Below, piece by piece: positions 41,255 through 60,400 of a DNA stretch of 64,000 bases (positions are counted from its first letter, which is position 1; each line of letters opens with the position of its first letter). The notes beneath the pieces were generated by a model, which did not search any database, was not told the origin of the DNA, and worked only from the letters and a program-made list of their open reading frames with translations. The stretch is from a virus. The position numbers and the translations under genes were made by a program. The stretch lies in the IMG/VR virus record IMGVR_UViG_3300042301_003793; one strand, given 5' to 3'.

Positions 41255-44164
41255 TTACGCTATATTTAATACTCCTCCGTTACTCCATACTGTTCCTGGT
41301 GCAAGACCTACCGAACTTGTTGGTATATTACTGATGTGTAAACAATTTACGTGTGTTGTGTTTGCAGCAGTACTAGTAATCCCATTTCCAATAATAAAAG
41401 AACAATCGTTTACAATTTTATTATTACAACCACCAAGTATACCACTAAATTGATTATTTATCGTATTACAATACCCACCACTAATTGTCGAAAGTGGTCC
41501 GTTTGCTGTGTTAATATTTCCACCACCTACAGTTGAAACATCTCCACTTGATGTGTTATTTCGTCCACCACTTACAGTTGAATAACCTCCGCTTGTTGTA
41601 TTTCTATTACCACCACTTACTGTTGAAAAGCAACCTAATGCTAAATGTCCAGAATATCCAGATGATGAACCACCACCACCAATAGTTGAATAACAACCGC
41701 TTGCTGTGTTACAAACACCACCACTTACAGTTGAAATATCTCCACTTGCTGTGTTACAAACACCACCACTTACGGTTGAATAATTACAACTTGATGTGTT
41801 TCTATATCCACCACTTACGGTCGAGCCAGCCCCACTTGATGTGTTTTGATAACCTCCACTTATTGTTGAATAATTTCCACTTGATGTGTTAACATACCCA
41901 CCACTTACGGTTGCAGAATTTCCAGTTGATGTGTTACAATATCCACCACTTACAGTTGAGCGATATCCACTTGATGTGTTATTTATTCCACCACTTACTG
42001 TTGAATACCGACCACTTGATGTGTTATTTCGTCCACCACTTACGGTTGCATGAGTATTGTTTTGTGTTTGGATATTTAACCAAACATCATCCAAAGGTGA
42101 AGATCCACCAAATAATCCACCGTTAAAATATAGTGTTTCACCATTAGAATACCCAGAACCTCCGTTTTGTATTTGAACGGTTTGTAATACACCAAGAACA
42201 AAATCAAAACTAAAGTATGCTCCAGATCCGGTACCACTTGATGTTGATGTTGGTGCAATACTACCATAAGAACTATTTAAAGTTCCACCAGTATATGTAA
42301 AACCAGGTATTCCACTAACATAATTATTTATTCCAGAAACGTTATTTTCTCCACCACCAATAAATGAGTTGTAACTACTTGCGGTATTGTTACATCCACC
42401 AACAATTGATGAAAAAGAACTTTTTACAACATTATCAAAACCACCACCAATAAATGAATAATCACTATTTGTTGTAATTGTGTTATTTTCTCCTCCGGCA
42501 ATTGTTGCAGTTTCACTACCTATAATTGTGTTATCATCACCACCACCGATTGTTGCATATTCGCTATATGTTGATATTGTATTATTTGCACCACCGGCAA
42601 TTGTTGAGTAATCAGCAGATGTTGTATTTTCATAACCACCACTTATTGTTGAGTATTCTCCAGATGCAGTATTTTGACATCCACCGGCAATAGTTGCATA
42701 GTTATTTGTTGTTGTATTTACATTAAATGTTACATCATCAATTCCAGATGTTCCGCCAAATATACTACCATCAAAGAAAAATAAATCATTTGATTCATAA
42801 AAATTTCCTCTATTGTTAACCGTAACATTATTAAGTGTTCCTAAAAAGAATTGAAAATTAAAAGTTGCAGCAAAACCATAAAGTGAATTTGTTGAGGTTG
42901 GTTGTATATTTGTAAATAATCCATTAAGTGTTCCTCCTGTGTATGTTTGGTTATAAACACCGCTTACACCATTTCTAACACCACCTTCATTACATCTACC
43001 ACCAGATATTGTACTATAACAACCATAAGTTGTATTTTGTCTACCACCACTTATTGTTGAATAACAAGAATCAATATTTATAATATTACAACGACCACCA
43101 CCAATTGTTGAACAATTTGCACTACTTATATTTCTACACCCACCACCAATTGTTGACGTATTTCTATATGCGGTATTTAAACAACCACCACCAATTGCAA
43201 TATTATTACCACCATTAGTAGTATTAATTTGTAATGTAACATTATCTTGTGGTATAGCACCACCAAATAATAATCCGTTAAATGTTAAAGTATCGCCACT
43301 AACATATCCTTGACCAATTTGATTAACATATACATTACTTAAGGTTGTTGGTGATGAAAAGTAAAAAGAAAATGTTGAACCAGAACCAAGACCAGAAAGT
43401 GTTGATGATGGTGAAAATGAACCATAAAAACCACTAGATGGAATATTACCGGTAAAAGTTTGGTTATATATTGAATCGACAACGCCATTAATTCCGGATG
43501 TATTACAAGAGCCACCACCAATAACAGAACTATTACCTAACGATGTGTTAAGTATACCACCACTGATTGTTGATACATAACCACTTGCGGTATTTCCAGA
43601 ACCTCCGGCAATAATTGAAATATTACCTAATGCTGCCGAGTTAACACCAATTCTTTGTGTTGAATCTAAACCAGAACCAACTTCATATAATGAAGTTCCA
43701 GTACCACCAGTTGTAAATCCAGTTACACCAAATGACGTTCCGTTATTATCTTTTAGTGTTAATGTACCAGTTGTATTATCATAAGTTCCACCAGTAACAA
43801 ATACATCAGTAGAACCAGTATATAAACCACTAATTGATAAAGAACCATTTTGTCTCCCTAATGTTATTGTACCATTAGAATATGTACCGCCAGTAACATA
43901 AAAATCTGTACCACCAGTATATAAACCATTAATTGATACAGAACCATTTTGTCTATTAAGTGTTATTGTACCGTTAGAATATGTACCACCAGTAACAAAG
44001 TTATCTGATATACCACTTAAAACATAATTTTTAAATTGTACTATTGGTGTTTGTTTTGTTTCACCAGTTACACTACCCAAGTAATTTACAATTGGAATAA
44101 TGTCGTTTGTTGTATAACCTGAATTACCTAAGTATGGTAATTCCGAAATTCTTTTATCTGCCAT
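41255..44164 (-). CDS. Tail fibre / adhesin with 15-aa beta-helix repeats and three inserted beta-domains
   Basis: N-terminal MADKRISELP; FVTGGTY repeats; NT(S/A)SGxYSTVSGGxx repeats. Confidence 0.75.
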   Translation of the reverse strand: MADKRISELPYLGNSGYTTNDIIPIVNYLGSVTGETKQTPIVQFKNYVLSGISDNFVTGGTYSNGTITLNRQNGSVSINGLYTGGTDFYVTGGTYSNGTITLGRQNGSLSISGLYTGSTDVFVTGGTYDNTTGTLTLKDNNGTSFGVTGFTTGGTGTSLYEVGSGLDSTQRIGVNSAALGNISIIAGGSGNTASGYVSTISGGILNTSLGNSSVIGGGSCNTSGINGVVDSIYNQTFTGNIPSSGFYGSFSPSSTLSGLGSGSTFSFYFSSPTTLSNVYVNQIGQGYVSGDTLTFNGLLFGGAIPQDNVTLQINTTNGGNNIAIGGGCLNTAYRNTSTIGGGCRNISSANCSTIGGGRCNIINIDSCYSTISGGRQNTTYGCYSTISGGRCNEGGVRNGVSGVYNQTYTGGTLNGLFTNIQPTSTNSLYGFAATFNFQFFLGTLNNVTVNNRGNFYESNDLFFFDGSIFGGTSGIDDVTFNVNTTTNNYATIAGGCQNTASGEYSTISGGYENTTSADYSTIAGGANNTISTYSEYATIGGGDDNTIIGSETATIAGGENNTITTNSDYSFIGGGFDNVVKSSFSSIVGGCNNTASSYNSFIGGGENNVSGINNYVSGIPGFTYTGGTLNSSYGSIAPTSTSSGTGSGAYFSFDFVLGVLQTVQIQNGGSGYSNGETLYFNGGLFGGSSPLDDVWLNIQTQNNTHATVSGGRNNTSSGRYSTVSGGINNTSSGYRSTVSGGYCNTSTGNSATVSGGYVNTSSGNYSTISGGYQNTSSGAGSTVSGGYRNTSSCNYSTVSGGVCNTASGDISTVSGGVCNTASGCYSTIGGGGSSSGYSGHLALGCFSTVSGGNRNTTSGGYSTVSGGRNNTSSGDVSTVGGGNINTANGPLSTISGGYCNTINNQFSGILGGCNNKIVNDCSFIIGNGITSTAANTTHVNCLHISNIPTSSVGLAPGTVWSNGGVLNIA
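41530..42050 (-). repeat. 45-nt coding tandem repeat (15 aa)
   Basis: ccaccacttac recurs at 45-nt spacing, e.g. 41943 and 41988. Confidence 0.85.
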
Positions 44165-44211: not shown

Positions 44212-45108
44212 TTAGTAAATTATTTTATCATTGTTTTCTGTCTTTAACACATTTCCGTTTTCAGTGAGTATATAGAAAGTTTCTGGTAACGGACTTGGTG
44301 TTGGTGTTGGAAAAGGTGTTGGTGTTGGTGTTGGTGTAATTGGGAACTGTTCAAATATTTCCCAAGTAGCATCACTTGGTGTCACAACAATATTTCCAAA
44401 CGCGTCATTCCTTGATAAATTATCAAAATTTTCATCTAATATAACTTGTGTCGTTCCAGATGTAAAACCAGTCGATATTGTAAGACCAGTTGATATTGTA
44501 ATTGGATTTCCACTATAAACACCTAATATGTGGTCAAAATTAAATTGTACGTCTTGACCTAGTATTGTTTTATTTGCTGTTAAATAATAATCAACAACAA
44601 CAGACCCAGATGTAACAACGGCCGTTAATTGTAAATTAAGTGGGATTGGTTGTACACAAATTGTTGTTGTAGTCGCAGTAATAACCGGACTTGTATTACA
44701 ACAAGGAAATTCACTAACATAACAATTATTATATTCTAATGAATCACCAATAAAACTTTCTTGTACATTAATATATAGTTTGTCTCTTAAAGGTAGTATT
44801 AAAACACCTTCATCATTTCTAAATAAAAATTGTCCTTCATATCTACCAACCTTTCTTGTATCTGTATTTGAAAACTGATAATAAACATAATATTCTGGTT
44901 CGGCATTTGGGTCCAACATTTCTTTTGCAACAAATCCTGCTGGTCTTGTGATAATCTTTGGTATTCCAGTATCAACATCAACCATTGAAAAGAATATCGC
45001 AGATTCTTCAATAAGACTCATCATTCTATTATAATCACTTCTGCCATCCTTGACAACTTGCATTTTTAATAAAGGAAGAGTTGCATTTTTCTTAATAAAG
45101 AATTCCAT
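44212..45108 (-). CDS. BppU-like baseplate/adaptor protein with Ig-like module and PT linker
   Basis: MEFFIKKNATLPLL..., YQFSNTDTRKVGRYEGQF; C-terminal ILTENGNVLKTE. Confidence 0.55.
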   Translation of the reverse strand: MEFFIKKNATLPLLKMQVVKDGRSDYNRMMSLIEESAIFFSMVDVDTGIPKIITRPAGFVAKEMLDPNAEPEYYVYYQFSNTDTRKVGRYEGQFLFRNDEGVLILPLRDKLYINVQESFIGDSLEYNNCYVSEFPCCNTSPVITATTTTICVQPIPLNLQLTAVVTSGSVVVDYYLTANKTILGQDVQFNFDHILGVYSGNPITISTGLTISTGFTSGTTQVILDENFDNLSRNDAFGNIVVTPSDATWEIFEQFPITPTPTPTPFPTPTPSPLPETFYILTENGNVLKTENNDKIIY

Positions 45109-45203: not shown

Positions 45204-45359
45204 ATGGGAAGAAAATTAATGGAAGAAAAAGAACGAAAAATTAAATTTGGAATTAGTTTAAATCGTAAAATTTTTGATAGAATGGTTGATGAAAAAGAAA
45301 ATAAATCTCGGTTGATTGAAAAATTATTGAAAGAATATTATGGAAACAAAAATTTGTAA
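45204..45359 (+). CDS. Uncalled small RHH-like DNA-binding protein (51 aa)
   Basis: Hand translation MGRKLMEEKERKIKFGISLNRKIFDRMVDEKENKSRLIEKLLKEYYGNKNL*; overlaps the start of the HNH gene. Confidence 0.65.
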   Translation: MGRKLMEEKERKIKFGISLNRKIFDRMVDEKENKSRLIEKLLKEYYGNKNL

Positions 45360-45927
45360 AAAATGTAAAGAAGAAAAAGAAATTTGTGAGTTCTATAAGG
45401 ATAGAAAATCAAAAGACAGTAAAAGGTCAAGATGTAAAAAATGTTTAAATTTACAAAACACTTTATATGTTAAAAAAAATAAAGATAGAGTTAACTCTAT
45501 TAAACAAAAATATGTTGATAATAACAAAGAAAAAGTAAAACAAAGTAAAAAAGAATGGTTTGATAAAAATCCTAACTATAGAAATGAATGGACTATTAAT
45601 AATTATAAAAATGATTTTCTTTTCAGATTAGTCAATATAATGAGAGCAAGAACAAGACTTTTTTTAAAATCAAAAAATATTAGGAAGAAAAACAATACAT
45701 TTGAAATCGTAGGGTGTTCACCTGAATTTTTAAAAGAATATATTGAAAAGCAATTTACTAAAGGTATGAATTGGGAGTTATTTGGTAGTCACATACATAT
45801 TGACCACATAATCCCATTATCTTTTGCAAAAACAGAAGAAGAAACATATAAACTTTGTCATTATACAAATCTCCAACCACTTTGGGCTGAAGATAATTTA
45901 AAAAAAAGTAATAAAATTTTAAATTAA
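45340..45927 (+). CDS. HNH-family endonuclease with N-terminal Zn finger (homing-like)
   Basis: CKKC...CKKC; HIDHIIPL...CHYTNLQPLWAEDNLKKSNK. Confidence 0.8.
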   Translation: METKICKKCKEEKEICEFYKDRKSKDSKRSRCKKCLNLQNTLYVKKNKDRVNSIKQKYVDNNKEKVKQSKKEWFDKNPNYRNEWTINNYKNDFLFRLVNIMRARTRLFLKSKNIRKKNNTFEIVGCSPEFLKEYIEKQFTKGMNWELFGSHIHIDHIIPLSFAKTEEETYKLCHYTNLQPLWAEDNLKKSNKILN

Positions 45928-47585
45928 CTTTCTTTTCTTAATTCTTTAGAATAATGATCAAAGCGTTCATGCTCAACTGGTGTTAATAATAACAAACCAC
46001 CCCTTAATTGATTTTTCTTTGTTAATTGGTAATGATGACTCATCCAAGTATTTTCAAAAGGGTGTGTCCATTTTGTATCCAAAAACATTTTTTTATTACC
46101 TTCTTGACTTATAATATGTGTCCAATTACAATAGTATATTTCACCATCAACATATGGTAATCCTTTATGTGACATTATATTATTAAACTTGGTTTTTGGT
46201 ACATTTGGTTCTAATCCATTGGTTGGTAAATTGGGTTTTTCAGGAAAATACTCATTTCTTTTTTCTTGTGGTAGGTTATACCAGGGCCAACAAGTCCCGT
46301 TGTCACCGTAAAATTCACTATAATTTATTTTGAGAAATTCAAAATCTTCTTTATCCATTATTTCAAAACACTTGTTAAATAAATTTGGTGTGTATCTATT
46401 AAATCCGTTTTTACAAGTTTCATCTGGTTTATTTTGGAAAAACATATCATCCTCTGACCACCACATATATTGTAAATCCGTGTTAGCAAAATGTTCGGCA
46501 ACAAATTGTCTTCCACCACAAATACCCAAATTATTCTTCTTAATGTGTTCAAAACCATATTCATCACATAACTCTTTATACCTTGGTGTTGTTGAAAGAT
46601 CTGTTGAGTTATCAAGTAAATATTTTTTTGTTTTATGTATAAAATTTGGGTCATAACCCAACATTGATTTTATTAAAGTTTCAAATTGTTTTGGTGAGTT
46701 AAACGTGATTACATATAAACCAATATCTCCTTTATATTTTGTTACAACTTTTTTTCCCTTATTTTTAATTACAACCGTATTATTTTTTACGTCTTCAAAA
46801 AATTTATATACCAAACCATTTGATTCTATTTCACAATAATCAATCATTGATGGATAAAGATAAGTCATAATTGTAAAAATACTCTCTTCGGTACCCATTA
46901 AATTTTTATTTAATGTATCAATAAGTAATTGGTAATATAAAACATTTAAGTCAGCAATTTTTTGTTTTGTTCCACCAAAAAATCCACCTCTTGAGACAAA
47001 CTCTGTTTTTGTTTTTGCGTAGTCACACATTTTTTTATAATCAAATCCGTGCACTTCGTTTTCCGCTTCATAAGGAAAAACAACAAACATAAATTTATCA
47101 AATAAACTTTCTATTTTATCTAATACATTATCACGAGTAAAATACCCAAGATTAACCGTGTTAGTTAATCCAGCGTCTATCCAGTAAAGTTTTTCGGAAT
47201 TAAAAGGATCCAAAATAGAAGCGTCGTGTAGTAAAAACATTTTGGACATTACAAGTGGATTGTAATATTCTAATCTTGCTTGTGTTGATTCTTTTAACCA
47301 ACCAGAAATATTATACCAATTTTCATTTGTTCTTATTTTTTGGATTTTATCAAAGTATTCGTTATTTCTAAACCAAGATAAATCCCTATTGATAAATTTT
47401 GTATTAGTTGGGTTTCTATATTTGAATACAAATTCTTCTAAGTGGTTATCACCAAAAATAATTAAATTACAATCTATTTCTAAAAGTTCTTTAAATTTTT
47501 CTAAATAATAATCAAAAGATCTATTCCATCCTTCATTAAGATTACCCCTTCCAATATCCCAAAGACCTGTAACAAGTGTTATCAT
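45924..47585 (-). CDS. HtrL/YibB(WlaTC)-like domain fused to a GT-A glycosyltransferase domain
   Basis: N-terminal TLVTGLWDIGR, WIDAG, GGFFGG, GTEESI; C-terminal YVITFNS, WSEDDM. Confidence 0.7.
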   Translation of the reverse strand: MITLVTGLWDIGRGNLNEGWNRSFDYYLEKFKELLEIDCNLIIFGDNHLEEFVFKYRNPTNTKFINRDLSWFRNNEYFDKIQKIRTNENWYNISGWLKESTQARLEYYNPLVMSKMFLLHDASILDPFNSEKLYWIDAGLTNTVNLGYFTRDNVLDKIESLFDKFMFVVFPYEAENEVHGFDYKKMCDYAKTKTEFVSRGGFFGGTKQKIADLNVLYYQLLIDTLNKNLMGTEESIFTIMTYLYPSMIDYCEIESNGLVYKFFEDVKNNTVVIKNKGKKVVTKYKGDIGLYVITFNSPKQFETLIKSMLGYDPNFIHKTKKYLLDNSTDLSTTPRYKELCDEYGFEHIKKNNLGICGGRQFVAEHFANTDLQYMWWSEDDMFFQNKPDETCKNGFNRYTPNLFNKCFEIMDKEDFEFLKINYSEFYGDNGTCWPWYNLPQEKRNEYFPEKPNLPTNGLEPNVPKTKFNNIMSHKGLPYVDGEIYYCNWTHIISQEGNKKMFLDTKWTHPFENTWMSHHYQLTKKNQLRGGLLLLTPVEHERFDHYSKELRKES

Positions 47586-48826
47586 AAATCACCAATTAAT
47601 CTATCACACCAACCTTTTGATTTTGAATGTGGCCAAACAACCCAATATTTCGGTTTTTCTTTTGCGTTAAACTCCCTCCATATTTTTCCATAACCGTCGG
47701 CGTCTGTTTTTATTCTTTTGATTTCTTCTTCTTGTGCGTCCATACGATATATTGTTTCATCTTTATCGTTATGAAATGCAACAACTAAAAAATCATAATC
47801 GTCTTCTGGTATTTTATCTAATGGAATATCTATACAATGTTTGAATATTCTTAAAAAACTTTCTTTCCATTCTTTATCATTTTTATAATCATAAGGATTT
47901 GGTGGATAGTTTTTATCTATTGTATATTGTTGTACGGATCTTTTTTCAAAAAGAACACCGGCGTATTTTTCATAATCACGTATTGTTCTTTCTTTTCCAA
48001 AACCATATTTTAATTTTCCTTTAAATTTTTCACCGTCAACACCTAATACTTTTCTATTTTTACTATGTGAACTTTCATTTTTCTTATACCATACGCTATC
48101 ATCATCCCACTGTTTTGTTCTACCTTTTCTTGTGTACTCGTGATAAATTACAATTTTATGTGGATGGAATAAATCATATCCGTGAGTATAAGCTCTAACA
48201 GCAATTGATATTTCTTCTCCGTGAAAATAATATTCTGGGTCGTGTTGAACTTCTATTGAAAATTCACCTAATGTAAAACAGAAATGTGCCGAATAAAATC
48301 TTGCTGGGATTGGTTTTTTTAATTCTTGCCAACCTGGTATTACTTCTGGTAAAAAGAAAACAACACCTTCTGGTGTAAATCTATCAAATACCATTCTCCA
48401 GGGTTCTGTAACTCTTCCTTGTGGGTCGTTGTCTGGATCAAAAGATGAAACATAACCGGTAAGAAGTGGTTTTTTATAACCATCTTCTTGTAATTCTTTT
48501 AACATATTAATTAATGTCTCATCCCAATTTTTTTCAAAACGCATATGAGAATCTAATTGTAACGTGTATGTTTCACCACTATATAATTGTTGTACTTGAT
48601 GTCTTGCCCAACACACACCAGTGGACGCTGTGTAGACAATATCTAAAATTCTAAATCTATCATCACTCTCATATTCTGAAAGGTCATCAAAACCATCTTC
48701 TGGGTGATATTGTCTTGCAATCCCCAATCTTAAATTTTCTGGGTATTTTGCTTTGTTCAACATATCTTTAATTGTTGGTATAAGCTGGGGGTCTCGATAA
48801 GAGGCTATTTGTACAAATATTGTCAT
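47582..48826 (-). CDS. GT60-like polypeptide / hydroxyproline alpha-GlcNAc transferase
   Basis: IFVQIASYRD, GVCWAR, LQLDSHMRF, YFHGEEI, HEY motifs. Confidence 0.85.
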   Translation of the reverse strand: MTIFVQIASYRDPQLIPTIKDMLNKAKYPENLRLGIARQYHPEDGFDDLSEYESDDRFRILDIVYTASTGVCWARHQVQQLYSGETYTLQLDSHMRFEKNWDETLINMLKELQEDGYKKPLLTGYVSSFDPDNDPQGRVTEPWRMVFDRFTPEGVVFFLPEVIPGWQELKKPIPARFYSAHFCFTLGEFSIEVQHDPEYYFHGEEISIAVRAYTHGYDLFHPHKIVIYHEYTRKGRTKQWDDDSVWYKKNESSHSKNRKVLGVDGEKFKGKLKYGFGKERTIRDYEKYAGVLFEKRSVQQYTIDKNYPPNPYDYKNDKEWKESFLRIFKHCIDIPLDKIPEDDYDFLVVAFHNDKDETIYRMDAQEEEIKRIKTDADGYGKIWREFNAKEKPKYWVVWPHSKSKGWCDRLIGDL

Positions 48827-49062: not shown

Positions 49063-49581
49063 TTAACTACATATAGGACTTAATGTTGGTGTAGGTGTAT
49101 TAGTCGGTGTATTTGACGGTGTAGGTGTATTAGTCGGTGTATTTGACGGTGTAAAATTTGGAGGCAACGGAGTAACACACAAGTCCCAAGTAGGAGTTGG
49201 TGTAGGTGTTGGTGTTGCAGTTGTTGTTGCCGTCGGAGTATTTGTAGGTGTAGGAGTCTGCGTTGGTGTTGGTGTGTTAGTAGGAGTCTGCGTTGGTGTT
49301 CTAGTAGGTGTTGGAGTTGGTGTTCTAGTAGGTGTATTTGTTGGAGTTGGTGTAGGTGTTGGCCTTGGTACATTTAAAAAGTTTGTACAATTACCACCAT
49401 CTGTTGATATTGTATATGTCCCATAAATTTCTTGTTGGGGTGTTAATAAATCTGGTTGAAAAGTGTATGGAAGTATAACAGAACCAATATTTATTGTAAT
49501 AGTACTATTATCTGGTTTGAATAATATTTGAGCAGGTTCACCGCTAAAATTTACACTTTGTATTGTAATTATCTGACTCAT
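49063..49581 (-). CDS. Mucin-like PT-repeat protein
   Basis: About 70-aa beta domain, then [14 protein letters not shown]... to the C-terminus; own TATTTATA motif. Confidence 0.8.
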
Positions 49582-49612: not shown

Positions 49613-49816
49613 TTATTTTTTAATTTTAATGTATTTGAACCAAACTCTTTCGTGTAAAAAATAAATAATTGGTTTTAATATTAATTCACCTAAACCTAAT
49701 AAAGAAGATATTTCTACTGACGCCCCAAGACAATATGCGACTACAACTGTGGTGATTGTCCCAAAAATTCTATAAGAAATTGTTTTTAATAAATGTCTTT
49801 TTAAGTCTGACTTCAT
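49613..49816 (-). CDS. DUF2061-like small membrane protein
   Basis: RHLLKTISYR...YFLHERVW. Confidence 0.75.
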   Translation of the reverse strand: MKSDLKRHLLKTISYRIFGTITTVVVAYCLGASVEISSLLGLGELILKPIIYFLHERVWFKYIKIKK

Positions 49817-49817
49817 T

Positions 49818-50273
49818 TTAATTTTTTTCCAATATCAATAAAACATCATCTTGTATGATTGGGTCAACTAATTTTTTCCAGTAATCATCTTTATTTTTTA
49901 TACAATTTCTAATACCAGTTGCAGAAATCCCACCAATTTCTTTTGGTGGTGTAAATTCATTTACTTCATATCCAACACCGCGACCAAAATTAACAGATTC
50001 AATATCTGGAATAATGATAACTTTAACATCATCACCTTTTGATTTATGGTACTTCTCAATCATAGAAACTGTTTGTTCTGTTGTAAAAGGATTTTTTTCA
50101 TCAGGTTCAATATCTCTAATCATAATTAAAACTGGTACTCCTTCATTTAATTTTTGTTGGATTAACTCAATGTGACCAAAATGATAAGGTTGATAACGAC
50201 CTACAAAAACTGCATACTTTTTACTTTCGTTATTTGTTGGATTTCCTCCGTGGTTTTTCTTTTCCCAACTCAT
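49818..50273 (-). CDS. HIGH-superfamily nucleotidyltransferase (NadM/cytidylyltransferase-like; candidate minimal ATP sulfurylase)
   Basis: GRYQPYHFGH, KNPFT, ISATGIR. Confidence 0.8.
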   Translation of the reverse strand: MSWEKKNHGGNPTNNESKKYAVFVGRYQPYHFGHIELIQQKLNEGVPVLIMIRDIEPDEKNPFTTEQTVSMIEKYHKSKGDDVKVIIIPDIESVNFGRGVGYEVNEFTPPKEIGGISATGIRNCIKNKDDYWKKLVDPIIQDDVLLILEKN

Positions 50274-50725
50274 ATGTGTTTAATTATTTCGTTTAATGAT
50301 TCTTGTGGATTAACACCTGTTGTATTAATATCAACAAAATTTTCTGATGGTTGTTCATACTCATCTGTATGGAAATGTTCTCTGCCTCTAATGTCTGTTG
50401 TATGAACATAAAACTCAACTAATAAATTTTGTAAATCATATTTAAAACTTTCTCTTAATTCTTTGTAAGGTGCAACAAGACTTACAATTACATCGTATCC
50501 TTGTACTAATAAAAATTTTGCAATGTCTTGAGCTCTTTTGATGTTTTCTTCTCTACCTTCTCTACCGTATTTTTGGTTATTGAAAAGTCTTCTTAATTCA
50601 TCACCGTCAATATGGAATACTTTATTTCCATATTCTTTTTCTAAAATTGTTTTTAACATTGTCGCTAATACAGTTTTACCAGCTCCTGGTTGTCCTGTAA
50701 ACCAATAAATCTTTTTTTCTTTCAT
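50270..50725 (-). CDS. cysC: Adenylylsulfate (APS) kinase
   Basis: WFTGQPGAGKT, IDGDELR, VSLVAPY, YEQP; ATG 50725 preferred. Confidence 0.85.
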   Translation of the reverse strand: MKEKKIYWFTGQPGAGKTVLATMLKTILEKEYGNKVFHIDGDELRRLFNNQKYGREGREENIKRAQDIAKFLLVQGYDVIVSLVAPYKELRESFKYDLQNLLVEFYVHTTDIRGREHFHTDEYEQPSENFVDINTTGVNPQESLNEIIKHI

Positions 50726-50727
50726 AA

Positions 50728-51546
50728 TCAAAAATAACCGAATTGGTCGTAAAACCATTGATGTTTTTGTTTTATCCAGTTACAAGCTGGTGTTCCAAGA
50801 ACTTCTTTATAATCTAATTTTAATGGTTCAATTTTAGATTTAATATTATGGTCACCATAAATTCCATAAACAGAATCATCTTCTTGTGTTATTTGTGTAA
50901 CATTATCAAAGTCGTGTTCAAAGTATGGTAACTCAAGATATTTATAAATTCTTTCCATTTCTTTTTTTGGATTTGAAGTGAAGTCTTCGAATTTAACAAA
51001 TAACATTTTATGATTAATACCTTCTTTGAAGATTTGATAAAGTCTTTCGACAGCCAAACCAACTGGTTGTGATTGTGACCAAATATCAATTCTTTTTTCT
51101 GTTGTAGTTCCTTGCATTTGCGCGTGATTAACAACACCAGAATCCATATGTTGACTCTTTCTAAAATTCTTTTCCATTGAGGCAAAGATTCCACGTAAGT
51201 CTCTTACCATACAAATAATCTTTGGTTCTGGATAAAAAGAATTTAAAAACCCATAATGAATACCCCAACCTCTACTTTTATCTAAAACATATGGTTTATC
51301 TGTTACACCATTAAAAAAACCTAACATACCTTGATTACAAAAGTTTAGAAAACCTTGTTTCATTAATTCTGAATCTTGTGCTTTAAACTCAGGTGATGAA
51401 GTGTAGTTTGCTCTTGCAGCATAAACTAATTCTAAAACACCAGATGTTGGTGTTACGTAAAACTCTGGATTTTGTCCCATAACATTTTGAAGTAATGTTG
51501 ATCCAGCTCTTGGTAATGAACTTTGGAAAAATATTTTTTCTACCAT
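50728..51546 (-). CDS. PAPS-dependent sulfotransferase
   Basis: 5'-PSB loop LPRAGSTLL; 3'-PB MVRDLRGIFAS; KFEDF. Confidence 0.88.
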   Translation of the reverse strand: MVEKIFFQSSLPRAGSTLLQNVMGQNPEFYVTPTSGVLELVYAARANYTSSPEFKAQDSELMKQGFLNFCNQGMLGFFNGVTDKPYVLDKSRGWGIHYGFLNSFYPEPKIICMVRDLRGIFASMEKNFRKSQHMDSGVVNHAQMQGTTTEKRIDIWSQSQPVGLAVERLYQIFKEGINHKMLFVKFEDFTSNPKKEMERIYKYLELPYFEHDFDNVTQITQEDDSVYGIYGDHNIKSKIEPLKLDYKEVLGTPACNWIKQKHQWFYDQFGYF

Positions 51547-51549: not shown

Positions 51550-52434
51550 TTAATTTTTTAGTGTTTCTATTATTTCGTTTATATTAAAGATGTTTGTATC
51601 AAATAAAGGACATTCGTGTATTGTACCATTAAAGTTGTAATCAAATAAGTAACTATCTGGTAACTTAACTGTTGTTGGTAGTTCTGCTATAATGTTTGTG
51701 TGTAATGGATAACCAAATACTTTTGGTGATGTACCAATCCACAATATGGTTGATGGTAGACCCATAGCAGCTGCCGCATGTTGTAAACAAGAATCAATTA
51801 ATAATCTTTTTTGAGCATAAGCTAATAATGAAAATAATTCCATATTAGACATAGGTTCTACGTGAGCCTCAACATTTTGTAAAACATTTGTTTGGTCTCT
51901 ACAAATTTGAATTATGTGATAATATTGTGAAAAGTGGTCAACAATTTTTTGAGCAACATCAAAAGGAATATCCCTTGTCCAAGAATATGGATATGGCTGT
52001 TCTTGTAATGGACCACCGTTTGTTTGAATGACCATTACAGGTTTTTCTCTTTTCCATTTATTAAATGCAACTTGTTGTTGTCTTAAATTAAATGAAAGTG
52101 ATGGCATTTCACCGTTATATTCTAAACCAAAAAGTTTACACCAATTCATAATTAATGGTAACTTTTTTTGGATATGGTCTGTTGTAAAATAAGGTTCGTG
52201 TTTAAAAATTAAACTATCTTTATCTTTAATGTAATCATCATAAAAATATGGTGTCATACCAATTCTATATACTCTATCAATAAAATCTAAATTTAAAAAT
52301 ATTTCTGGGTAAGCACAGACAATAATTAATTCCCTATCTGGGTGATTGTTTTTTATACATTTTGCAACAGCAGTTGATAGAACGTGTTTTCCTAAACCAC
52401 CTTCTAAATGAAATATACTATATTTTTTTTCCAT
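51550..52434 (-). CDS. GT-B glycosyltransferase, GT9-like
   Basis: GGLGKHVLST; LIDSCLQHAAAAMGLPSTILW. Confidence 0.75.
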   Translation of the reverse strand: MEKKYSIFHLEGGLGKHVLSTAVAKCIKNNHPDRELIIVCAYPEIFLNLDFIDRVYRIGMTPYFYDDYIKDKDSLIFKHEPYFTTDHIQKKLPLIMNWCKLFGLEYNGEMPSLSFNLRQQQVAFNKWKREKPVMVIQTNGGPLQEQPYPYSWTRDIPFDVAQKIVDHFSQYYHIIQICRDQTNVLQNVEAHVEPMSNMELFSLLAYAQKRLLIDSCLQHAAAAMGLPSTILWIGTSPKVFGYPLHTNIIAELPTTVKLPDSYLFDYNFNGTIHECPLFDTNIFNINEIIETLKN

Positions 52435-52450
52435 AATAAGATTATAATTT

Positions 52451-53368
52451 TTAATTTTTGTTAGTAAAGATAATTGCTTCGTTAATCTTATCTATTACCA
52501 TTTTTGGTTTTATTTTTGTGTGACATTCGTTTTCTCTTTCTGTTCCTAAAAATATTGGACATTTAGTTTTTATATTTGGAAACATATTAAAACATCCATT
52601 ACAAACATAAGGGTTTGTGACTCTAAAACAATCAAATTCGTTTTGACTTTTTGTAAAATTTGAAATCATAACAACTGGTACGTCATAGGCCCAAGCAAGC
52701 CAAGAAAGACCTGAAGATAAACCAACAAAGAACCTTGAACTAACAATATGGTCAATTGCAACATTTAAATCATCGTGACCGTGAAAACCAATAACATTTT
52801 CTAAATTCATTGTATTTTCATAAGAAATGTTATAAACGTTGTAACCTACATTATGTAATGAATTTACAATTGTTTGCCAACCCTCATTCCCATTATATTT
52901 CCATTGTGAAATTTCTTTAATTGTTTCTGGACCCATAGTAATTTTATTTGGGTCTATTGTTCTTAGTTTTGGAATTACTGGACATTTACCTGGTTTTGTT
53001 TCTTGCGGTAATCGCATTGTATCTTTAGCAGCATAAAACATACCACCTAAAGTGTGTGCCATATTATTTTTATCATAACCAACATCAACTAGTTTATCAA
53101 TTTCTAAAAAACCACTTTCATTTGCGTTAATAAACTCATAGTCTGGTCTATTTGATTTTAATAGGTGTGGAAAAAAAGTTGTAACCCAAACGTACTTTGG
53201 TTTGTGATAATCCATAAAAGCATCCATCAAAGATGAAAAACAAATTGTATCACCTAAACAAAATGAGTCAAAGTGTAATAATAATTCTTTTCCTTCAAAG
53301 GTTTCTAAGTTTGGCTCTCTTTCTTTATAGTTCATCAACTCAGAATTGTCGTAATGTCTTTTAACCAT
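52451..53368 (-). CDS. Aah/TibC-like protein O-glycosyl (heptosyl) transferase with Cys4 iron finger
   Basis: LGDTI, FFVGLSSGLSWLAWA, C-x2-C-x10-C-x11-C at 52523-52603. Confidence 0.72.
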   Translation of the reverse strand: MVKRHYDNSELMNYKEREPNLETFEGKELLLHFDSFCLGDTICFSSLMDAFMDYHKPKYVWVTTFFPHLLKSNRPDYEFINANESGFLEIDKLVDVGYDKNNMAHTLGGMFYAAKDTMRLPQETKPGKCPVIPKLRTIDPNKITMGPETIKEISQWKYNGNEGWQTIVNSLHNVGYNVYNISYENTMNLENVIGFHGHDDLNVAIDHIVSSRFFVGLSSGLSWLAWAYDVPVVMISNFTKSQNEFDCFRVTNPYVCNGCFNMFPNIKTKCPIFLGTERENECHTKIKPKMVIDKINEAIIFTNKN

Positions 53369-54104
53369 TTTTATATTTTAAAAGTTTAGAGTAATATTCA
53401 AACCAATATCTTTCTTGCCAGATTGTACCTTCTTCCAAATACACCAATGGTTTTTGTTGCCAAGGTTTTTTTACAATGTAGTGTAAAATTTTAATATGTT
53501 TTGGTAGTCCTGTATTTTTGAATATTTCTTTTGAATATGTTTTTAAGTAATTATATGATACTGGTATTTCAGTTATTTCATCATAAAAATAATTATTAAT
53601 AATATCTTGGTCCAGATGTTCTGTAATCCCATATATTGTTGTAAGATGTATTAAATCATCTGTTATTTTTTCAGATAAATATTTTTTTGAGATAACAAGA
53701 ACACCTGTGTTGTATTGGTCAATATATAAATCTCTAACACCACCAATATCACCATCAAAATCAATTAGATAATCAATGTTTCCTAAAATAACAACATCTG
53801 AATCTAAAAATATAATTTTGTTAAATTCAGTTAATGAAAAAATTTCATATTTAGTATAATCACCAAAAGACATTTGTTTTTCTTTTAGTTTTTCTATTTC
53901 AGAATATTTTTCGGTGTCAAATCTTTTTATGTGTATATTATTGTACATTCTTCTTGAGGCGACTAAATCTTCTGGTGTTAAATCATTTGTGATGATTACA
54001 AATGGTAATTTTTCACTAACAACTCTTGGGTTATTATCTATTAACGATTTTAACATTACCTCAAATCCTATAAGATAATCTTTATTACATACAGTTACAA
54101 ACAT
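53361..54104 (-). CDS. GT8-family glycosyltransferase
   Basis: IIFLDSD, YNTGV, DQDIIN, ILHYIVKKPW. Confidence 0.88.
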   Translation of the reverse strand: MFVTVCNKDYLIGFEVMLKSLIDNNPRVVSEKLPFVIITNDLTPEDLVASRRMYNNIHIKRFDTEKYSEIEKLKEKQMSFGDYTKYEIFSLTEFNKIIFLDSDVVILGNIDYLIDFDGDIGGVRDLYIDQYNTGVLVISKKYLSEKITDDLIHLTTIYGITEHLDQDIINNYFYDEITEIPVSYNYLKTYSKEIFKNTGLPKHIKILHYIVKKPWQQKPLVYLEEGTIWQERYWFEYYSKLLKYKNG

Positions 54105-54189: not shown

Positions 54190-57100
54190 TTAAGGAACAA
54201 AATATATTCTATTTAAATCTGTTGGACAGTAGTAAACGGATTTTGAAGGTAAACCAGCAGAACTAGTTGGTAAATCAATAATACTTAAACAGTTTACATA
54301 TGTTGTATTTGGACAACTTGTTGTAATTCCATAACCAACAATAAATGAGCAATTGTGTGAAACTGTATTTCCGGATCCACCAAGAATACCAGAATATTGT
54401 GTTGTTATAGTGTTTTGATAACCACCACTTACGGTTGAATTAGTTCCACTTGATGTGTTACATCGTCCACCACTTACGGTTGAATTAGTTCCACTTGATG
54501 TGTTTTGTTGTCCGCCGCCAATTACAGAATAACCTCCGATTGATGTGTTACATCGTCCACCACTTACGGTTGAATAAACTCCACTTGATGTGTTATATAA
54601 ACCACCACCTACAGTTGAAATATCTCCACTTGATAAGTTAAAATAACCACCACTTACGGTTGAATTATTACCACTTGCTGTATTTTGTCGTCCACCATTT
54701 ATATTTGAGTGATAACCAATTGCAGTGTTACATCGCCCCCCACTTACGGTTGAATAACAACCACTTGTTGTGTTTGAAACTCCACCACTTACGGTTGAAA
54801 ATGTATTACTTGCTCTGTTACCACAACCACCACCTACGGTTGCAAAATTATAATCAGTTGTTGATACAAGGAATGATATATCATCAACACCAGAAGTTCC
54901 ACCAAACAATGTTCCGTCAAATAATAAAAAATCACCATCAATATAGTTTTGACCAGCCGCTGAAATGGTAATGCTGTTAACAACACCTGCGGTCAAGTTA
55001 AAGTTAAACAAAGAGCCAAAACCGTTAACACTAGTTGTAAATGAAGAAGATACTCCCGGAAAAATACCAGTTGTTGTTGATCCACTTGTATTTAAATTAT
55101 AATAATTACTTACAGTTCCGTTTATACCTGCAATGTTTACTTTACCACCACCAATTGATGAACCAATAGTACGTGCTGTGTTTTGATAACCACCACTTAC
55201 TGTTGAATAATTCCCACTTGTTGTATTAAATTCTCCACCACCAATAAATGAAAATGGATTACTTGCTGTGTTTTTATAGCCACCACTTACGGTTGAAAAT
55301 GTATTACTTGATTCATTACGAATTCCACCACTTACTGTTGAACTAATCCCACTTGCATTATTACAACCACCACCACTTACAGTTGAAATATCTCCACTTG
55401 CTGTGTTACAATCACCACCACTTACATTTGAACGAATTCCACTTGATGTGTTACAATATCCACCACTTACAGTTGAGTAAAAAGCTGATGCTGTATTTCC
55501 ACAACCTCCGGCAATTGTTGACGCATAACCTGTTGCAAAATTACTATATCCACCGCTCACAGTCGAGTATTCACCCAATGAAGCATTATTACAACCACCA
55601 CCAACAAATGAAAAAGGTCCTGAATTTGTGTTTATTTGTAATGTAACATCATCAGTACCTGATACACCACTAAAATTAGTTCCATCAAAAAATAATGTAT
55701 CACCATTAACATAATTAGAACCACCAGATACAATATTAAGAGATGAAAAAGAACCTGTATTAAAAGTAAAATTAAATACCGCACCCGTACCATATCCAGA
55801 AACAGTTGATGTTGGTGTAATACCACCGTATATACCATTAAAGGTTCCTCCGGTATATACTGTATTGTAGTAATTACTAACAGTATTTTTTATCCCTGCT
55901 TTATTTCCATAACCACCACTTATTGTTGAAAAGTTAGTATACGATGTATTTTGAAAACCTCCACTAACAAGTGAAAAGTTACCAAGAGCGTCATTTAATG
56001 TACCAATTCTTTGTGTTGAATCTACCCCAGAACCAATTTCATAAGGTCCAGAACCAATTCCTCCACCAACAACAACATTACCTTGAGCATCAATACCCAA
56101 ATCATTTATTGACGTACCAGTACTAATAATACCTATATTTAATCCTGGTACATAAACAGTATCATCTGTTGTTCCAGAAATATTTTGTCCACCTAAAATA
56201 ACACTCCTATCTGCTTGTAAAGTAGAGTTATTTGAAAATACCATTGAGCAATCACCAATAACTATGTTATTAGCACCACCGGCAATTGCAGAACAATAAC
56301 CAGAAACTGTATTACTATATCCACCGGCAATATTACTATTAAATCCTATTACTGTATTAAATTGTCCACCGGCAATTGTTGTACCATCAGAATAAGTTTC
56401 ATTTGATAAACCACCTAATATTGATGCGTATGTTCCGTAGTTTTTATTTTGTGAACCACCTGCAACAACAGAAATGTTTGATACCGTTGTGTTTCCACAT
56501 CCACCACCTACAAATGAACCAGATCCTAAGTTTGCGTTATTACATCCACCAACAATAATAGAAAAGTTTGCGTCTGATGTGTTACAGCACCCACCAAGAA
56601 TTGCACTACCACAAGAATCAACCGTATTGTATTCTCCACCACCAACAACTGTAAAATCACAATTTGCGATGTTTGAGTTACCCCCACCAACAAAAGCTGT
56701 TGTGTCGGCTGCTGTGTTAAATCTACCACCAGCAACAATTGCAAAATCTCCAATAGCACTATTCTGTGCTCCACCACCAACGGTTGAGCAAGCATTTAAT
56801 GCAACATTTTCAAAACCACCACCAACAGTTGTGTTATAATCAGAAGCAGTGTTTGATTCTCCACCACCAATTGCCGAATATTTTCCAGAAGAAGTATTGT
56901 TACAACCAGCAACAACAGAAGCATAATTTTGTGATGCAACATTTAAGTAACCACCACCAATAAATGTACAGCTATCTAAAATTGTATTTTTACAACCACC
57001 AACAATTGTTGAAAGGTCGCCATTTATTGTATTTAATTCTCCGCCACCAATAAATGTTGATGATGAATTTGTTGTGTTTGTATTGCAATAACCACCAGTA

Positions 57101-57375
57101 ATTGAACCAAATGTTCCATTATTTGTATTACAATAACCGCCACCGATAAAAGAATAATTCCCAGTTGATTTATTACATCTACCACCAGTAATTACACCCA
57201 TACAACCAGTTGTTGTATTAAAAAAACCACCAACTATTGTTCCGTAGTTTTTATCTGCTGTGTTTGAATACCCACCTAATACTGTTGAATAATTACATCT
57301 AGCAGCATTATTATTATCACATCTAACTGTAGAGTTTATCCCACCTACCGGGTCATCAATTATAACGTAAGCCAT
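54190..57375 (-). CDS. Tail fibre / adhesin paralogue 2 (15-aa Gly/Ser/Cys repeats, two inserted beta-domains)
   Basis: STVSGGxxNT repeats; YEIGSGVDSTQRIG shared with fibre 1. Confidence 0.75.
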   Translation of the reverse strand: MAYVIIDDPVGGINSTVRCDNNNAARCNYSTVLGGYSNTADKNYGTIVGGFFNTTTGCMGVITGGRCNKSTGNYSFIGGGYCNTNNGTFGSITGGYCNTNTTNSSSTFIGGGELNTINGDLSTIVGGCKNTILDSCTFIGGGYLNVASQNYASVVAGCNNTSSGKYSAIGGGESNTASDYNTTVGGGFENVALNACSTVGGGAQNSAIGDFAIVAGGRFNTAADTTAFVGGGNSNIANCDFTVVGGGEYNTVDSCGSAILGGCCNTSDANFSIIVGGCNNANLGSGSFVGGGCGNTTVSNISVVAGGSQNKNYGTYASILGGLSNETYSDGTTIAGGQFNTVIGFNSNIAGGYSNTVSGYCSAIAGGANNIVIGDCSMVFSNNSTLQADRSVILGGQNISGTTDDTVYVPGLNIGIISTGTSINDLGIDAQGNVVVGGGIGSGPYEIGSGVDSTQRIGTLNDALGNFSLVSGGFQNTSYTNFSTISGGYGNKAGIKNTVSNYYNTVYTGGTFNGIYGGITPTSTVSGYGTGAVFNFTFNTGSFSSLNIVSGGSNYVNGDTLFFDGTNFSGVSGTDDVTLQINTNSGPFSFVGGGCNNASLGEYSTVSGGYSNFATGYASTIAGGCGNTASAFYSTVSGGYCNTSSGIRSNVSGGDCNTASGDISTVSGGGCNNASGISSTVSGGIRNESSNTFSTVSGGYKNTASNPFSFIGGGEFNTTSGNYSTVSGGYQNTARTIGSSIGGGKVNIAGINGTVSNYYNLNTSGSTTTGIFPGVSSSFTTSVNGFGSLFNFNLTAGVVNSITISAAGQNYIDGDFLLFDGTLFGGTSGVDDISFLVSTTDYNFATVGGGCGNRASNTFSTVSGGVSNTTSGCYSTVSGGRCNTAIGYHSNINGGRQNTASGNNSTVSGGYFNLSSGDISTVGGGLYNTSSGVYSTVSGGRCNTSIGGYSVIGGGQQNTSSGTNSTVSGGRCNTSSGTNSTVSGGYQNTITTQYSGILGGSGNTVSHNCSFIVGYGITTSCPNTTYVNCLSIIDLPTSSAGLPSKSVYYCPTDLNRIYFVP

Positions 57376-57436: not shown

Positions 57437-60400
57437 TTAAAGTTTAACCCAAAGTTGAGTACCACCACCTGACGCACTTGTTGTACACCTATAAACAGTA
57501 CCACTTGGAAGTGCTGTAACTTCAGTTTCGGTTGGTAAACTTTTTAAAGTAACTCTTGAACAAGTGTTTGGAGATGAAATACCGCCACCATTAACTGTAA
57601 AGTTATTTACAAAAGTTGTGAAACATTGATCAGTTGTAATGTTACATCCTAAAACGTGTGAATCACTTAAACAAACTGTGTTTGCTCTACCAACGGCCGA
57701 TGAATAAGAGGCAAGATTACTAATGTTGTTTCCACAACCACCTTTAATTGTTGACCAAGGAACATTAGTACCAATTATGTTACTTTCACCACCACCAATT
57801 GTACTACAACAAGAATTGTTTGTATTTAATCTACCACCAACAATACTTGAGTGAGACTGTAATACACAGTTAGATTGACCACCACCAATTGTTGAATAAG
57901 ATTGGATTAGACAGTTAAAAGCTCCACCACCAATTGTTGACGCATAACCTGTTGCAGATATTGAGTTTGAAATACCACCTAAGATACCTGCTACTGTAGA
58001 TGCTGCAGTATTTGTACTACCTAAAACAACAGAACAAGGACCGCTAGCAATGTTTGCTGATCCAGTTCTAAGAGTTGAAAGTGAGCCTGTACCCGCAACA
58101 ACAATTTGAGTTGGAATTGATGTTAAACCAGCTGGTAATCCACTTACAGTTGCAACGCCATTTTGTCTATTTAATGTGATTAAACCGTTAGCGTTATTAT
58201 ATGTACCACCAGTAACAAAGAAATCATTACTTTGGAAACCAGGTACAGTAACATTAGTACCATTGTTTTGACCAAGAGTTAAGGTACCATTTGAATATGT
58301 CCCACCAGTTACAAATGTGTTTTGTGTTTGGAACCCAAGAATACTTACATCGGTAGCACCATTTGATTGTGATAATACTAATTCACCTATTGTTGGGTTA
58401 TATGTACCACCAGTTAAATATTTATCACTATCAATTAATGTTGCTAAATCAACATTAAATGAATTTCCATCATTTCTATCAAATGTAATTTGTGAAAGTA
58501 CGTTATCATACGTACCACCAGTAACGTATGTGTTTTCAGTTACAATTGTAAACGGACCACCATTTGGTGTTAAATTATATTCTAAAGTTGATGTTTGTAC
58601 ATTTGTATTATCATTTCCAGATGTTAATGTACTTCCTGTTACAAAATAATCTGTAAATCCAGTTGCCGTAACTTGAGAGCCATCGGTATTTGTTAAAGTT
58701 AATGTATCACCAACTTTTGTTGCACCAGTCAAATATGTGTCCGTGTATCCAGTTGTAAATCCAGAAATTTGTACTGTATTTCCAGATGTGTTAACAAATG
58801 TTACAACACCTGTATTTGCATCATATGTACCACCAGTTAAACCTAAGTCAGTTGCTAAAACACCTAAATTTACTTGTAAATCATTTCCATCATTAACCGA
58901 TGCTGTTAAAATAAATGAACTATTATCAAATGTTAATCCAGTTAAAAAGTAATCTGTTTGAGATACTACCGAAACAACATTACCAGACGCATCAACACCT
59001 AATGTAGAAACTGGCGTTGTTGCACCAACTGTTTGAATATTTAATTGTGGAACATAAACAGTATCATTTGTTGTACCAGTAATATTTTGTCCACCTATTA
59101 CAGCTGACCTATTTCCTGTTACAACGTTTTGACATCCACCAAGAATCATAGATTGTGTTGCTTGAGCTCTGTTTTCTACACCACCAGCAATAACTGAGTT
59201 ATTTCCAGTCGCAGTATTTCTTAGACCTCCAAGAATTGATGATTCAAAATTAAGAGCAGTATTACATCTACCACCACCAATTGTTGATCTATAACCAGAT
59301 GCGGTATTTCTATATCCACCACTTATTGTGTTATTTATACCAAATGATGTATTAAATGAACCACCACCTACATTTGATCTATTCCCAACTGCTGAGTTAT
59401 ATAAACCACCACCTACTGATGATTGGAAATTATAAGTTTCATTACAATATCCACCACCAATTACTGACGCAAAACCGTATGCTTTATTCCCAAATCCACC
59501 ACCAATTGCGATGCTTCCACCACAACCAGTATTACAACAACCACCAGCAACAGTATCACTCAAATTACAAGTTTTGTTAGATCTACCACCACCTATAGCT
59601 GTGTAGTTACTAAATGTTTGATTATTACAACCACCATTAATTGTTGAGAATGACCCATTTAATTGGTTAACAGCCCCACCATTAATAACACCCATATATC
59701 CAAAGTTGTTGTTAGCAAAACCACCACCAACAAATGAATAATTACCACTAGCAATATTAACAAAACCACCGGCAACAACGTCACTATTATTATTTGCTTG
59801 GTTTTGACAACCACCACCAATTGTACTTGCAAATCCATTTGCATTATTATTAACACCAAACACAGTTGAATATTGACCGTTAGCGTTATTTCCTGAGTTT
59901 TTCCTTACTGAAGAAGAAAATCCATTACCTCCAACAATTACAGCATCTTCAATTCCAGAAATATCTACTGTACCATTTTGTTGTTGGATTGTTAAGGTTG
60001 ATGTTGATGGAGTATAAAAACCACCAGTAACATATGTATCTGTATATCCAGTTAAGAAACCAGTAACACTAAATGTACCACCAGAGTTATTTGTAAAAGT
60101 TGCAGTACCAGAGTTTAAATCATATGTACCACCAGTTACTCTTAAATCACCAGCTAAAATACCTAAATTAACCGTGTAGGCACTATAGTTGTTTAGTTCA
60201 ACTGTTAAGGCGTAAGTACTTTGGTCAAATGTAAATCCAGTTGTAAAGTAATCTGTAGCGCCAGTTGTAAAACCAGTCACAACAAAAGAACCACCCTGGT
60301 TGTTTTCAAATGTTGCACTACCAGTTGAGTTATCATATGTACCTCCCGTAACATATGTGTCGATAGATGTAAACCCAGTTACAAGAACTGATGAACCATC

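Follow-up and report, generated by a model that had tools for sequence, protein, structure and literature searches.

A stretch of 64,000 nucleotides from the IMG/VR virus record IMGVR_UViG_3300042301_003793 (64 kb, hereafter the window), one section of a roughly 180-kb phage genome, carries a compact four-gene module in which a small HxGH (HIGH-type) nucleotidyltransferase, termed NT here, is translationally coupled to a kinase of adenosine 5'-phosphosulfate (APS). Judging from sequence comparisons, we propose that NT is a minimal, non-orthologous ATP sulfurylase working together with this APS kinase, and we put the probability of this at roughly 0.7. The support comes from four independent lines of comparative genomics, namely the fusion of NT to APS kinases, its adjacency to them, its anti-correlation with the known sulfurylases Sat and CysDN, and a missing step in the synthesis of 3'-phosphoadenosine 5'-phosphosulfate (PAPS). 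The four genes of the module, all encoded on the minus strand, are as follows.

50728-51546, minus strand, PAPS-type sulfotransferase (PF13469 at 1.4e-19, PF00685 at 2.6e-11, phrog_27463 at 2.9e-41)
50270-50725, minus strand, short-lid APS kinase (CysC-like), 151 aa (PF01583 at 3.6e-19)
49818-50273, minus strand, NT, 151-aa HxGH (HIGH-type) nucleotidyltransferase (PF01467 at 4.7e-7)
49613-49816, minus strand, DUF2061 protein, 67 aa (PF09834 at 3.9e-16)

The original prediction had described a sulfotransferase, CysC, a 151-aa HIGH enzyme and DUF2061 in series, with an ATGA overlap between CysC and the HIGH enzyme; the coordinates, strand and Pfam matches agreed with this, and the overlap of the kinase stop with the NT start as ATGA was seen in the junction sequence. 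Read in the same way, two nucleotides (TT) separate the TGA stop of the sulfotransferase from the kinase ATG, and a single A separates the TAA stop of NT from the ATG of DUF2061. The kinase open reading frame as called spans 50270-50758, and a start at its upstream ATG (50758) would place 31 nt of it inside the sulfotransferase gene; the ATG at 50725 is the probable true start, given that MKEKK forms the N-terminus of relatives. The sulfotransferase exceeded its family cut-offs (PF13469, 71.6 bits vs 27; PF00685, 43.9 bits vs 22), and we take its motifs LPRAGST (near the N-terminus) and VRDLRGIFAS to be the 5'-phosphosulfate-binding (5'-PSB) and 3'-phosphate-binding (3'-PB) motifs for PAPS. 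Searching the window by tblastn with nine Sat, two CysD and two CysN proteins found none of the three (best E 0.29), and the predicted absence of CysD/CysN and full-length Sat thus holds for the window. This order of genes was also found in a 184-kb metagenomic contig, with protein identities of 66-91%, and in dozens of IMG/VR contigs, so the arrangement is not due to chance. A DNA-level search of a phage collection returned one distant partial match and nothing else, and the nearest viral record (G001) contained no match to NT.

The association between NT and APS kinase was conserved across a large family. NT comprised 2496 clusters at 90% identity within a near-length range and 1276 representatives at 50% identity (E <= 0.001), and occurred on at least 574 IMG/VR contigs and, within species-representative genomes, at 530 or more sites. 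Among the best 150 of the 50%-identity representatives, 52 were fusions, and APS kinase was the partner in 44/52, in both domain orders. One such fusion (P0124) had a full-length kinase (PF01583 at 9.5e-69) and an NT domain 61% identical to that of the window. The well-supported branches of an NT-domain tree (135 columns) required the kinase-NT architecture to change six or more times and the NT-kinase architecture two or more times; this tree was poorly resolved (10/120 branches strongly supported, outgroup rows resembling nicotinamide mononucleotide (NMN) adenylyltransferases (NMNATs) on long branches) and was therefore used for this lower bound only. Rare fusions joined NT to DHHA1 (P0254), DUF6717 (P0139), a methyltransferase or DUF2061 (P0240); the DHHA1 family includes phosphatases of 3'-phosphoadenosine 5'-phosphate. 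Kinase-NT fusions of ~245 aa were also observed in Xylella phage Salvo (gp32; L001 4587-5333) and Stenotrophomonas phage DLP_6 (gp227; L002 4593-5324), where they belong to phrog_10255, are annotated 'kinase', and lie among genes for MazG, topoisomerase and ligase with no sulfotransferase nearby.

In a survey of CysC, HIGH enzyme and DUF2061 neighbourhoods, which the original prediction had named as a check, APS kinase was present in 78/80 NT loci from IMG/VR (within 300 nt of NT in 66) and DUF2061 in 41/80 (within 1.5 kb of NT in 39/80). A sulfotransferase, as far as detectable with three query proteins, was found near NT in at least 23/80, and Sat, CysD and CysN in 0/80 of these viral loci. 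The 20 related viral records scrutinised, five of which were at least 90% complete, lacked any Sat above cut-off and any gene of the PAPS_reduct family, and their sole faint matches to the Sat family (PF01747) fell on three of the NT genes themselves. In cellular genomes, APS kinase was adjacent or fused to NT in at least 53/80 loci. This included a Marinimicrobia genome in which the NT-APS kinase pair lies inside a polysaccharide cluster together with Sulfotransfer_5, a Wzx-type flippase and GT1.

We further investigated the occurrence of known sulfurylases in 30 NT-bearing genomes from about ten lineages, consisting of 14 complete chromosomes of Dadabacteria/Thermodesulfobacteriota type and a remainder that included Bacteroidetes, Acidobacteriota, Marinimicrobia, Planctomycetota, Saccharibacteria, Marine Group II and other archaea. 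APS kinase occurred in 30/30 of these genomes, Sat in 1/30 and CysD over cut-off in 1/30. Five complete Dadabacteria-like chromosomes possessed a CysH-type reductase, APS kinase and NT with no Sat or CysD; consumers of activated sulfate are therefore present with no known producer. As a control, 121 Marinimicrobia genomes, each 80% complete or more, were analysed. Sat or CysD was found in 71/76 of those that had an APS kinase and no NT, and in 0/4 of those bearing NT. The original prediction of a stripped-down, non-orthologous sulfurylase is thus supported by this anti-correlation (2/30 vs 71/76) as well as by the fusions, the adjacency and the missing step. Five Marinimicrobia genomes held both Sat and CysD, so sulfurylase redundancy is normal. 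A short CysD variant was also seen, covering ~1-205 of the 294-position CysD model and scoring below cut-off, in L004 (6365-7168, minus strand) and in Marinimicrobia genomes G051, G055, G085, G087, G088, G095, G100, G110 and G115; APS kinase adjoins it in some.

Several observations, from the genomes as well as from the protein itself, weigh against a sulfurylase role. A Scalindua genome (G030) has NT plus CysD and CysNC, a Nitrospiraceae genome (G016) has NT plus Sat-CysC, and in an Acidobacteriota metagenome-assembled genome (MAG) an NT-APS kinase fusion has as direct neighbours a CysN and a CysD, the latter short but genuine. The sample itself was uneven, as 14/30 genomes form one Dadabacteria-like clade and many others are incomplete MAGs or single-amplified genomes. 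In that clade hundreds of kilobases separate NT from APS kinase, and the genes around NT are housekeeping ones, for instance MsrA, Aat and HemB. APS may also be supplied in NT genomes by the AprAB route; AprA (TIGR02061) was matched in 0/10 NT genomes and 0/5 Sat-bearing genomes, with no control genome matching either. A phage could moreover take APS from its host, and the phage context alone therefore does not require a sulfurylase. No paper was found in the literature on the NT family, on the function of DUF2061 or on a phage PAPS pathway using NT, and databases label NT merely as 'cytidyltransferase-like'.

The points raised by the protein concern its descent. In agreement with the original claim that the GRYQPxHxGH and NPFT motifs sit closest to NMNATs, the best-scoring curated models and solved structures for NT were archaeal and NadM-type NMNATs, although all curated-model scores fell below cut-off. 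Whilst the superfamily model PF01467 (cytidylyltransferase-like) was matched over cut-off (30.5 bits vs 21), the NMNAT models reached only 50.0 bits vs 127 (TIGR01527) and 45.2 bits vs 181.2 (NF002243), at model positions 2-94 only and over the N-terminal half of NT. NMNATs of this type are represented by the structures 1f9a, 1ej2, 2qjt and 2qjo, and the NT profile reached E 4.8e-14 to 1f9a. For Sat, the window NT gave no match to PF01747 at E <= 0.01 (family cut-off 24.3 bits), and its relatives gave sub-threshold matches only (best among fusions, E 7.4e-6; viral NT genes, 14.9-18.9 bits). An AlphaFold2 model of NT, built on 56 relatives (pLDDT, the predicted local distance difference test, 94.3), ranked in the same manner with VIA-align. 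The NMNAT of M. jannaschii matched best (Z 13.9, root-mean-square deviation (rmsd) 2.5, 129 residues, 30% identity), followed by phosphopantetheine adenylyltransferase (PPAT; Z 13.0) and NadM (Z about 12), then by T. thermophilus Sat with APS (1v47_B; Z 10.0, rmsd 3.5, 130 residues, 20% identity) and the other Sat or PAPS-synthase entries 2gks, 3cr8, 4dnx, 1x6v and 1j70 (Z 6.8-8.1). The nearest relatives of NT by sequence and fold are thus NMNATs and PPAT, not Sat. This fold is common to the entire HIGH superfamily, and the match to Sat alone therefore does not show function; the ranking indicates a HIGH nucleotidyltransferase fold that is also found in Sat, but of NMNAT-like lineage.

Another reading is that NT is an NMN or nicotinic acid mononucleotide adenylyltransferase, rebuilding or boosting phage nicotinamide adenine dinucleotide (NAD) with CysC nearby only by accident. 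In addition to the best matches being NMNATs, NT shares with them the motifs GRxQPxHxGH, NPFT and ISxTxxR, and phage NadM-type NMNATs do exist, e.g. in Klebsiella phages, at about 29% identity. However, as the scores above illustrate, NT falls far under the NMNAT cut-offs and matches the N-terminal half only. Against the NMNAT structures 1f9a, 1ej2 and 4yp7, the NT profile aligned in two blocks only, positions 22-93 and 114-149 of the profile. Its centre, about 25-30 residues shorter, has no aligned NMNAT counterpart, and residues ~82-129 of the M. thermautotrophicus NMNAT are replaced by a shorter SVNYGRGVGY..PP segment. In published structures, the unmatched NMNAT segment is the one that holds the NMN pocket. 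NadD over cut-off was present in 26/30 NT genomes, and three of the four without it had a separate full-length paralogue matching the archaeal NMNAT models, so that 29/30 carry NadD or another NMNAT-like paralogue. Furthermore, the overwhelming fusion and adjacency partner of NT is APS kinase; NT is accompanied by genes for APS kinase, sulfotransferase and DUF2061 rather than by those of the NAD pathway. The role in NAD repair that had been offered as an alternative is accordingly disfavoured, and we regard it as very unlikely. The family most likely consists, judging from these alignments, of widespread, unnamed HxGH adenylyltransferases of about 115-160 aa that arose from the archaeal/NadM NMNAT lineage and lost the NMN-binding segment.

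Conservation within the family was informative as to whether NT is an enzyme at all. The NT signature reads GR[WY]QPxHxGH ... (I/V)RD ... NPxT ... PDIESVNYGRGVGY ... ISATxIR, and the window NT carries GRYQPYHFGH, NPFT, ISATGIR and FGRGVGY. Whilst mean column identity in the family alignment was 19%, H34 and S117 were invariant and G25, R26, H31, T119 and R122, which belong to the GR, HxGH and ISxTxxR motifs, were conserved in at least 90% of sequences. Further near-invariant residues were R53 (VRD motif), P62 and G97-R98-G101 (YGRGVGY motif). R53 is absent at the aligned NMNAT position, where the GS of the NMNAT IGSAQ loop corresponds to RD in NT, and R98 falls in the unaligned centre. This pattern indicates an active adenylyltransferase with a remodelled acceptor site, in which the family-specific R53 and R98 may bind sulfate. 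It also bears on the possibility that NT is a non-catalytic or regulatory partner that binds APS or PAPS or stabilises the kinase, with APS coming from the host or an unrecognised source. Such degenerate partners have a precedent in the allosteric APS-kinase-like domain of fungal ATP sulfurylase, and PDB entries 1i2d and 1m8p were among the matches of the short-lid kinase profile; the CysDN adjoining one NT-kinase fusion and the ability of phages to draw on host APS fit this explanation as well. Nevertheless, HxGH, GR and ISxTxxR are invariant or nearly so despite the low overall identity, as for an active enzyme, and the complete chromosomes with CysH and APS kinase showed no other detected source of APS, which renders a purely regulatory NT highly improbable.

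Returning to NT as a sulfurylase, Sat itself (EC 2.7.7.4, PF01747; 1v47, 1j70) shares with NT the HxxH nucleotidylyltransferase superfamily fold and the proposed reaction. Its differences are considerable. Sat has about 390 aa in comparison to about 115-160 aa for NT, which lacks the N-terminal domain and the QxRN motif and has GRGVGY where Sat has GRDHAG; by sequence its origin lies in the NMNAT branch and not in that of Sat. The Sat genes in the genomes analysed show FQTRNPIHRAHE and VGRDHAGVG, and NT shares with them only the HxxH core and a GR...GVG.Y resemblance. An hhalign alignment of NT with Sat (E 5e-4, 30% probability) paired NYG with NYG and GVG with GVG; it was not taken as evidence for homology of the central motifs, because it placed the fourth strand of NT against a Sat helix. 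NT resembles the PAPS synthases (human PAPSS1, 1x6v; Aquifex, 2gks) in its pairing with or fusion to APS kinase, including the kinase-first order of PAPSS. CysD-CysN takes an equivalent position in PAPS modules and is largely absent where NT is present, but the fold of CysD, a PAPS-reductase-like ATP pyrophosphatase, is unrelated to that of NT. CysDN also has a GTPase subunit and NT has none; NT would need APS kinase and a pyrophosphatase to pull the reaction.

The kinase in the window belongs to a divergent subfamily. It matched PF01583 well over cut-off (69.7 bits vs 21.1, model positions 4-110 of 152) and fell below both NCBIfam APS-kinase models (68.6 bits vs 138.7 and 71.8 bits vs 127). 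The subfamily, of ~150 aa, carries the P-loop GQPGxGKT, IDGDxLR, GRxxNI and (S/A)PY, with EIRGRE replacing a lid that is ~19 residues shorter. Members were identified in the window (50270-50725) and in L038, L040, L044, L046, L053, L061 and L102. This short-lid form is common to phages, some Marinimicrobia and Bacteroidetes, always adjoins NT, and in some Marinimicrobia genomes is the only APS kinase present. All of the top 24 PDB matches of its profile were APS kinases (8a8h at 4.7e-22, 7yq0, 2gks).

The divergence of this kinase, with its sub-cut-off NCBIfam scores and shortened lid, leaves room for a different chemistry, in which NT adenylylates another small phospho- or oxy-anion and the APS-kinase-like partner 3'-phosphorylates the product to give a donor other than PAPS, at least with the short-lid kinase. 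This follows the logic of PPAT and dephospho-coenzyme A (CoA) kinase. Pairs of a HIGH nucleotidyltransferase and a kinase exist for several cofactors (NadR, CoA synthase, RibF), the kinase-NT fusions of Xylella, Xanthomonas and Stenotrophomonas phages lie among DNA-metabolism genes with no sulfotransferase nearby, and the rare fusions of NT to DUF6717 or a methyltransferase could be read in the same manner. In NadR (NMNAT plus ribosylnicotinamide kinase) and CoA synthase (PPAT plus dephospho-CoA kinase), as in the NT module, adenylyl transfer and phosphorylation form two steps, and the same two folds occur both as separate genes and as fusions. In contrast to these cofactor systems, the kinase partner of NT is specifically of the APS-kinase family and the context is sulfation. 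Many kinase partners are full-length APS kinases (1e-50 to 1e-70), whilst the short-lid subfamily keeps DGD, RxxNI and (S/A)PY alongside its exclusively APS-kinase PDB matches. Translational coupling in the window extends to a PAPS-type sulfotransferase, sulfotransferases recur near viral NT genes, and the anti-correlation of NT with Sat and CysDN relates specifically to sulfate activation. We therefore consider a substrate other than sulfate unlikely. A heptose-type kinase and adenylyltransferase pair (HldE logic), raised by the weak GT9-like neighbours of the module, was also considered and was dropped because the kinase is P-loop/APS-kinase-like and not of PfkB type, and its counterparts elsewhere are bona fide APS kinases.

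DUF2061 was matched by PF09834 with 59.6 bits (cut-off 23.1) at model positions 1-51 of 52, and is predicted to form a two-helix membrane hairpin; its relatives include tandem-duplicated forms of 141-152 aa. It comes after APS kinase-NT in several other phages and was found in 2/30 NT-bearing cellular genomes. It also occurs in a PAPS module without NT, in a cellular exopolysaccharide cluster (L104 2033-12501) encoding Wza, Wzc, CysQ, tandem DUF2061, CysC, CysD, CysN, Wzx and sulfotransferases. The tie between DUF2061 and PAPS modules that had been suspected was thus borne out by the phage loci, by its fusion to NT (P0240) and by this CysC-CysD-CysN cluster. Its occurrence with either NT or CysDN suggests that DUF2061 is an optional membrane component that accompanies PAPS modules irrespective of their sulfurylase; it may be either a tether or a supplier of sulfate. 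Comparison of the two arrangements (CysQ-DUF2061-CysC-CysD-CysN and, in phages, APS kinase-NT-DUF2061) places NT in the slot held elsewhere by CysDN.

In the mechanism we propose, NT would convert ATP and sulfate to APS and pyrophosphate, and the translationally coupled short-lid APS kinase would phosphorylate APS to PAPS, the consumption of APS pulling the unfavourable first step forward. The adjacent sulfotransferase would then spend PAPS on glycans made by the surrounding glycosyltransferases, probably on virion or cell-surface targets and perhaps on the Pro-Thr-rich and giant repeat proteins around the module, with DUF2061 as a small membrane partner that would act as tether or sulfate supplier. 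Catalytic activity, any physical complex and the sulfation target are the elements of this scheme that we infer.

The window derives from a large marine myovirus of roughly 30% G+C, which also encodes a ribonucleotide reductase, a DnaB-like helicase, a methyltransferase and a tail sheath protein. The genes flanking the module in the same region are listed below, the first three lying upstream and the last three downstream.

53361-54104, minus strand, GT8 glycosyltransferase in the same gene run (PF01501 at 2e-25)
52451-53368, minus strand, weak GT9-like gene (PF01075, below cut-off, E 0.0071)
51550-52434, minus strand, weak GT9-like gene (PF01075, below cut-off, E 4e-4)
49063-49581, minus strand, Pro-Thr-repeat protein of 172 aa, from its translation, directly downstream of DUF2061
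47582-48826, minus strand, PF11397 'GlcNAc' transferase (PF11397 at 1.1e-70), syntenic in L003
45924-47585, minus strand, glycosyltransferase gene for an HtrL_YibB-like protein (PF09612 at 5.2e-21), syntenic in L003

Counterparts of the three upstream glycosyltransferase genes (51550..54104) occur in the same order in the locus L003, where a weak relative of the Pro-Thr-repeat protein occupies the equivalent place. Together, the PF11397, GT8, GT9-like, HtrL-like and sulfotransferase genes look like machinery for O-glycosylating and sulfating phage proteins, for which the Pro-Thr-repeat protein would be a possible substrate. Another protein with a PTPTPT tail is encoded nearby (44212-45108, minus strand), close to the PF11397 transferase and the Pro-Thr-repeat protein. 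The module is also flanked by four giant proteins of 946-1478 aa (54190-57375, 57437-61873, 41255-44164 and 38123-40963, all on the minus strand), built from short repeats of the form S-x-(V/I)-(S/G)-G-G-x-x-N-(T/S); these presumably serve as fibres or decoration and are candidates for being modified. The product of the sole plus-strand gene in this stretch (45340-45927), 195 aa long, is Cys-rich at its N-terminus and contains an HIDHIIP...N motif that looks like that of an HNH endonuclease; it had no significant Pfam match. The tail sheath protein (27136-30795, minus strand) is unusually long at 1219 aa, and sheath families match its last ~300 residues only.

Taken more broadly, it appears fairly probable from these sequence comparisons that NT founds a third class of ATP sulfurylase, ~115-160 residues long, which evolved independently, from an NMNAT-like ancestor, and would serve as the sole sulfate activator of many phages and streamlined microbes, with DUF2061 as a dedicated membrane partner. 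The lineages concerned would include Dadabacteria-like bacteria, some Marinimicrobia, Acidobacteriota, Planctomycetota, candidate phyla radiation (CPR) bacteria, Marine Group II and DPANN archaea. If its activity is confirmed, NT would be a third and very small catalyst for the first committed step of sulfate assimilation and sulfation, one that annotation pipelines do not recognise. Streamlined marine and candidate-phyla microbes that are now read as lacking sulfate activation would then possess it, and sulfur-pathway calls would change for lineages with APS kinase and CysH but apparently no sulfurylase. The pairing would also offer a compact two-enzyme PAPS generator for biocatalysis. For the phages themselves, a complete PAPS pathway would join the known viral auxiliary metabolic genes, and the module hints that phage-directed glycan sulfation is a common trait.

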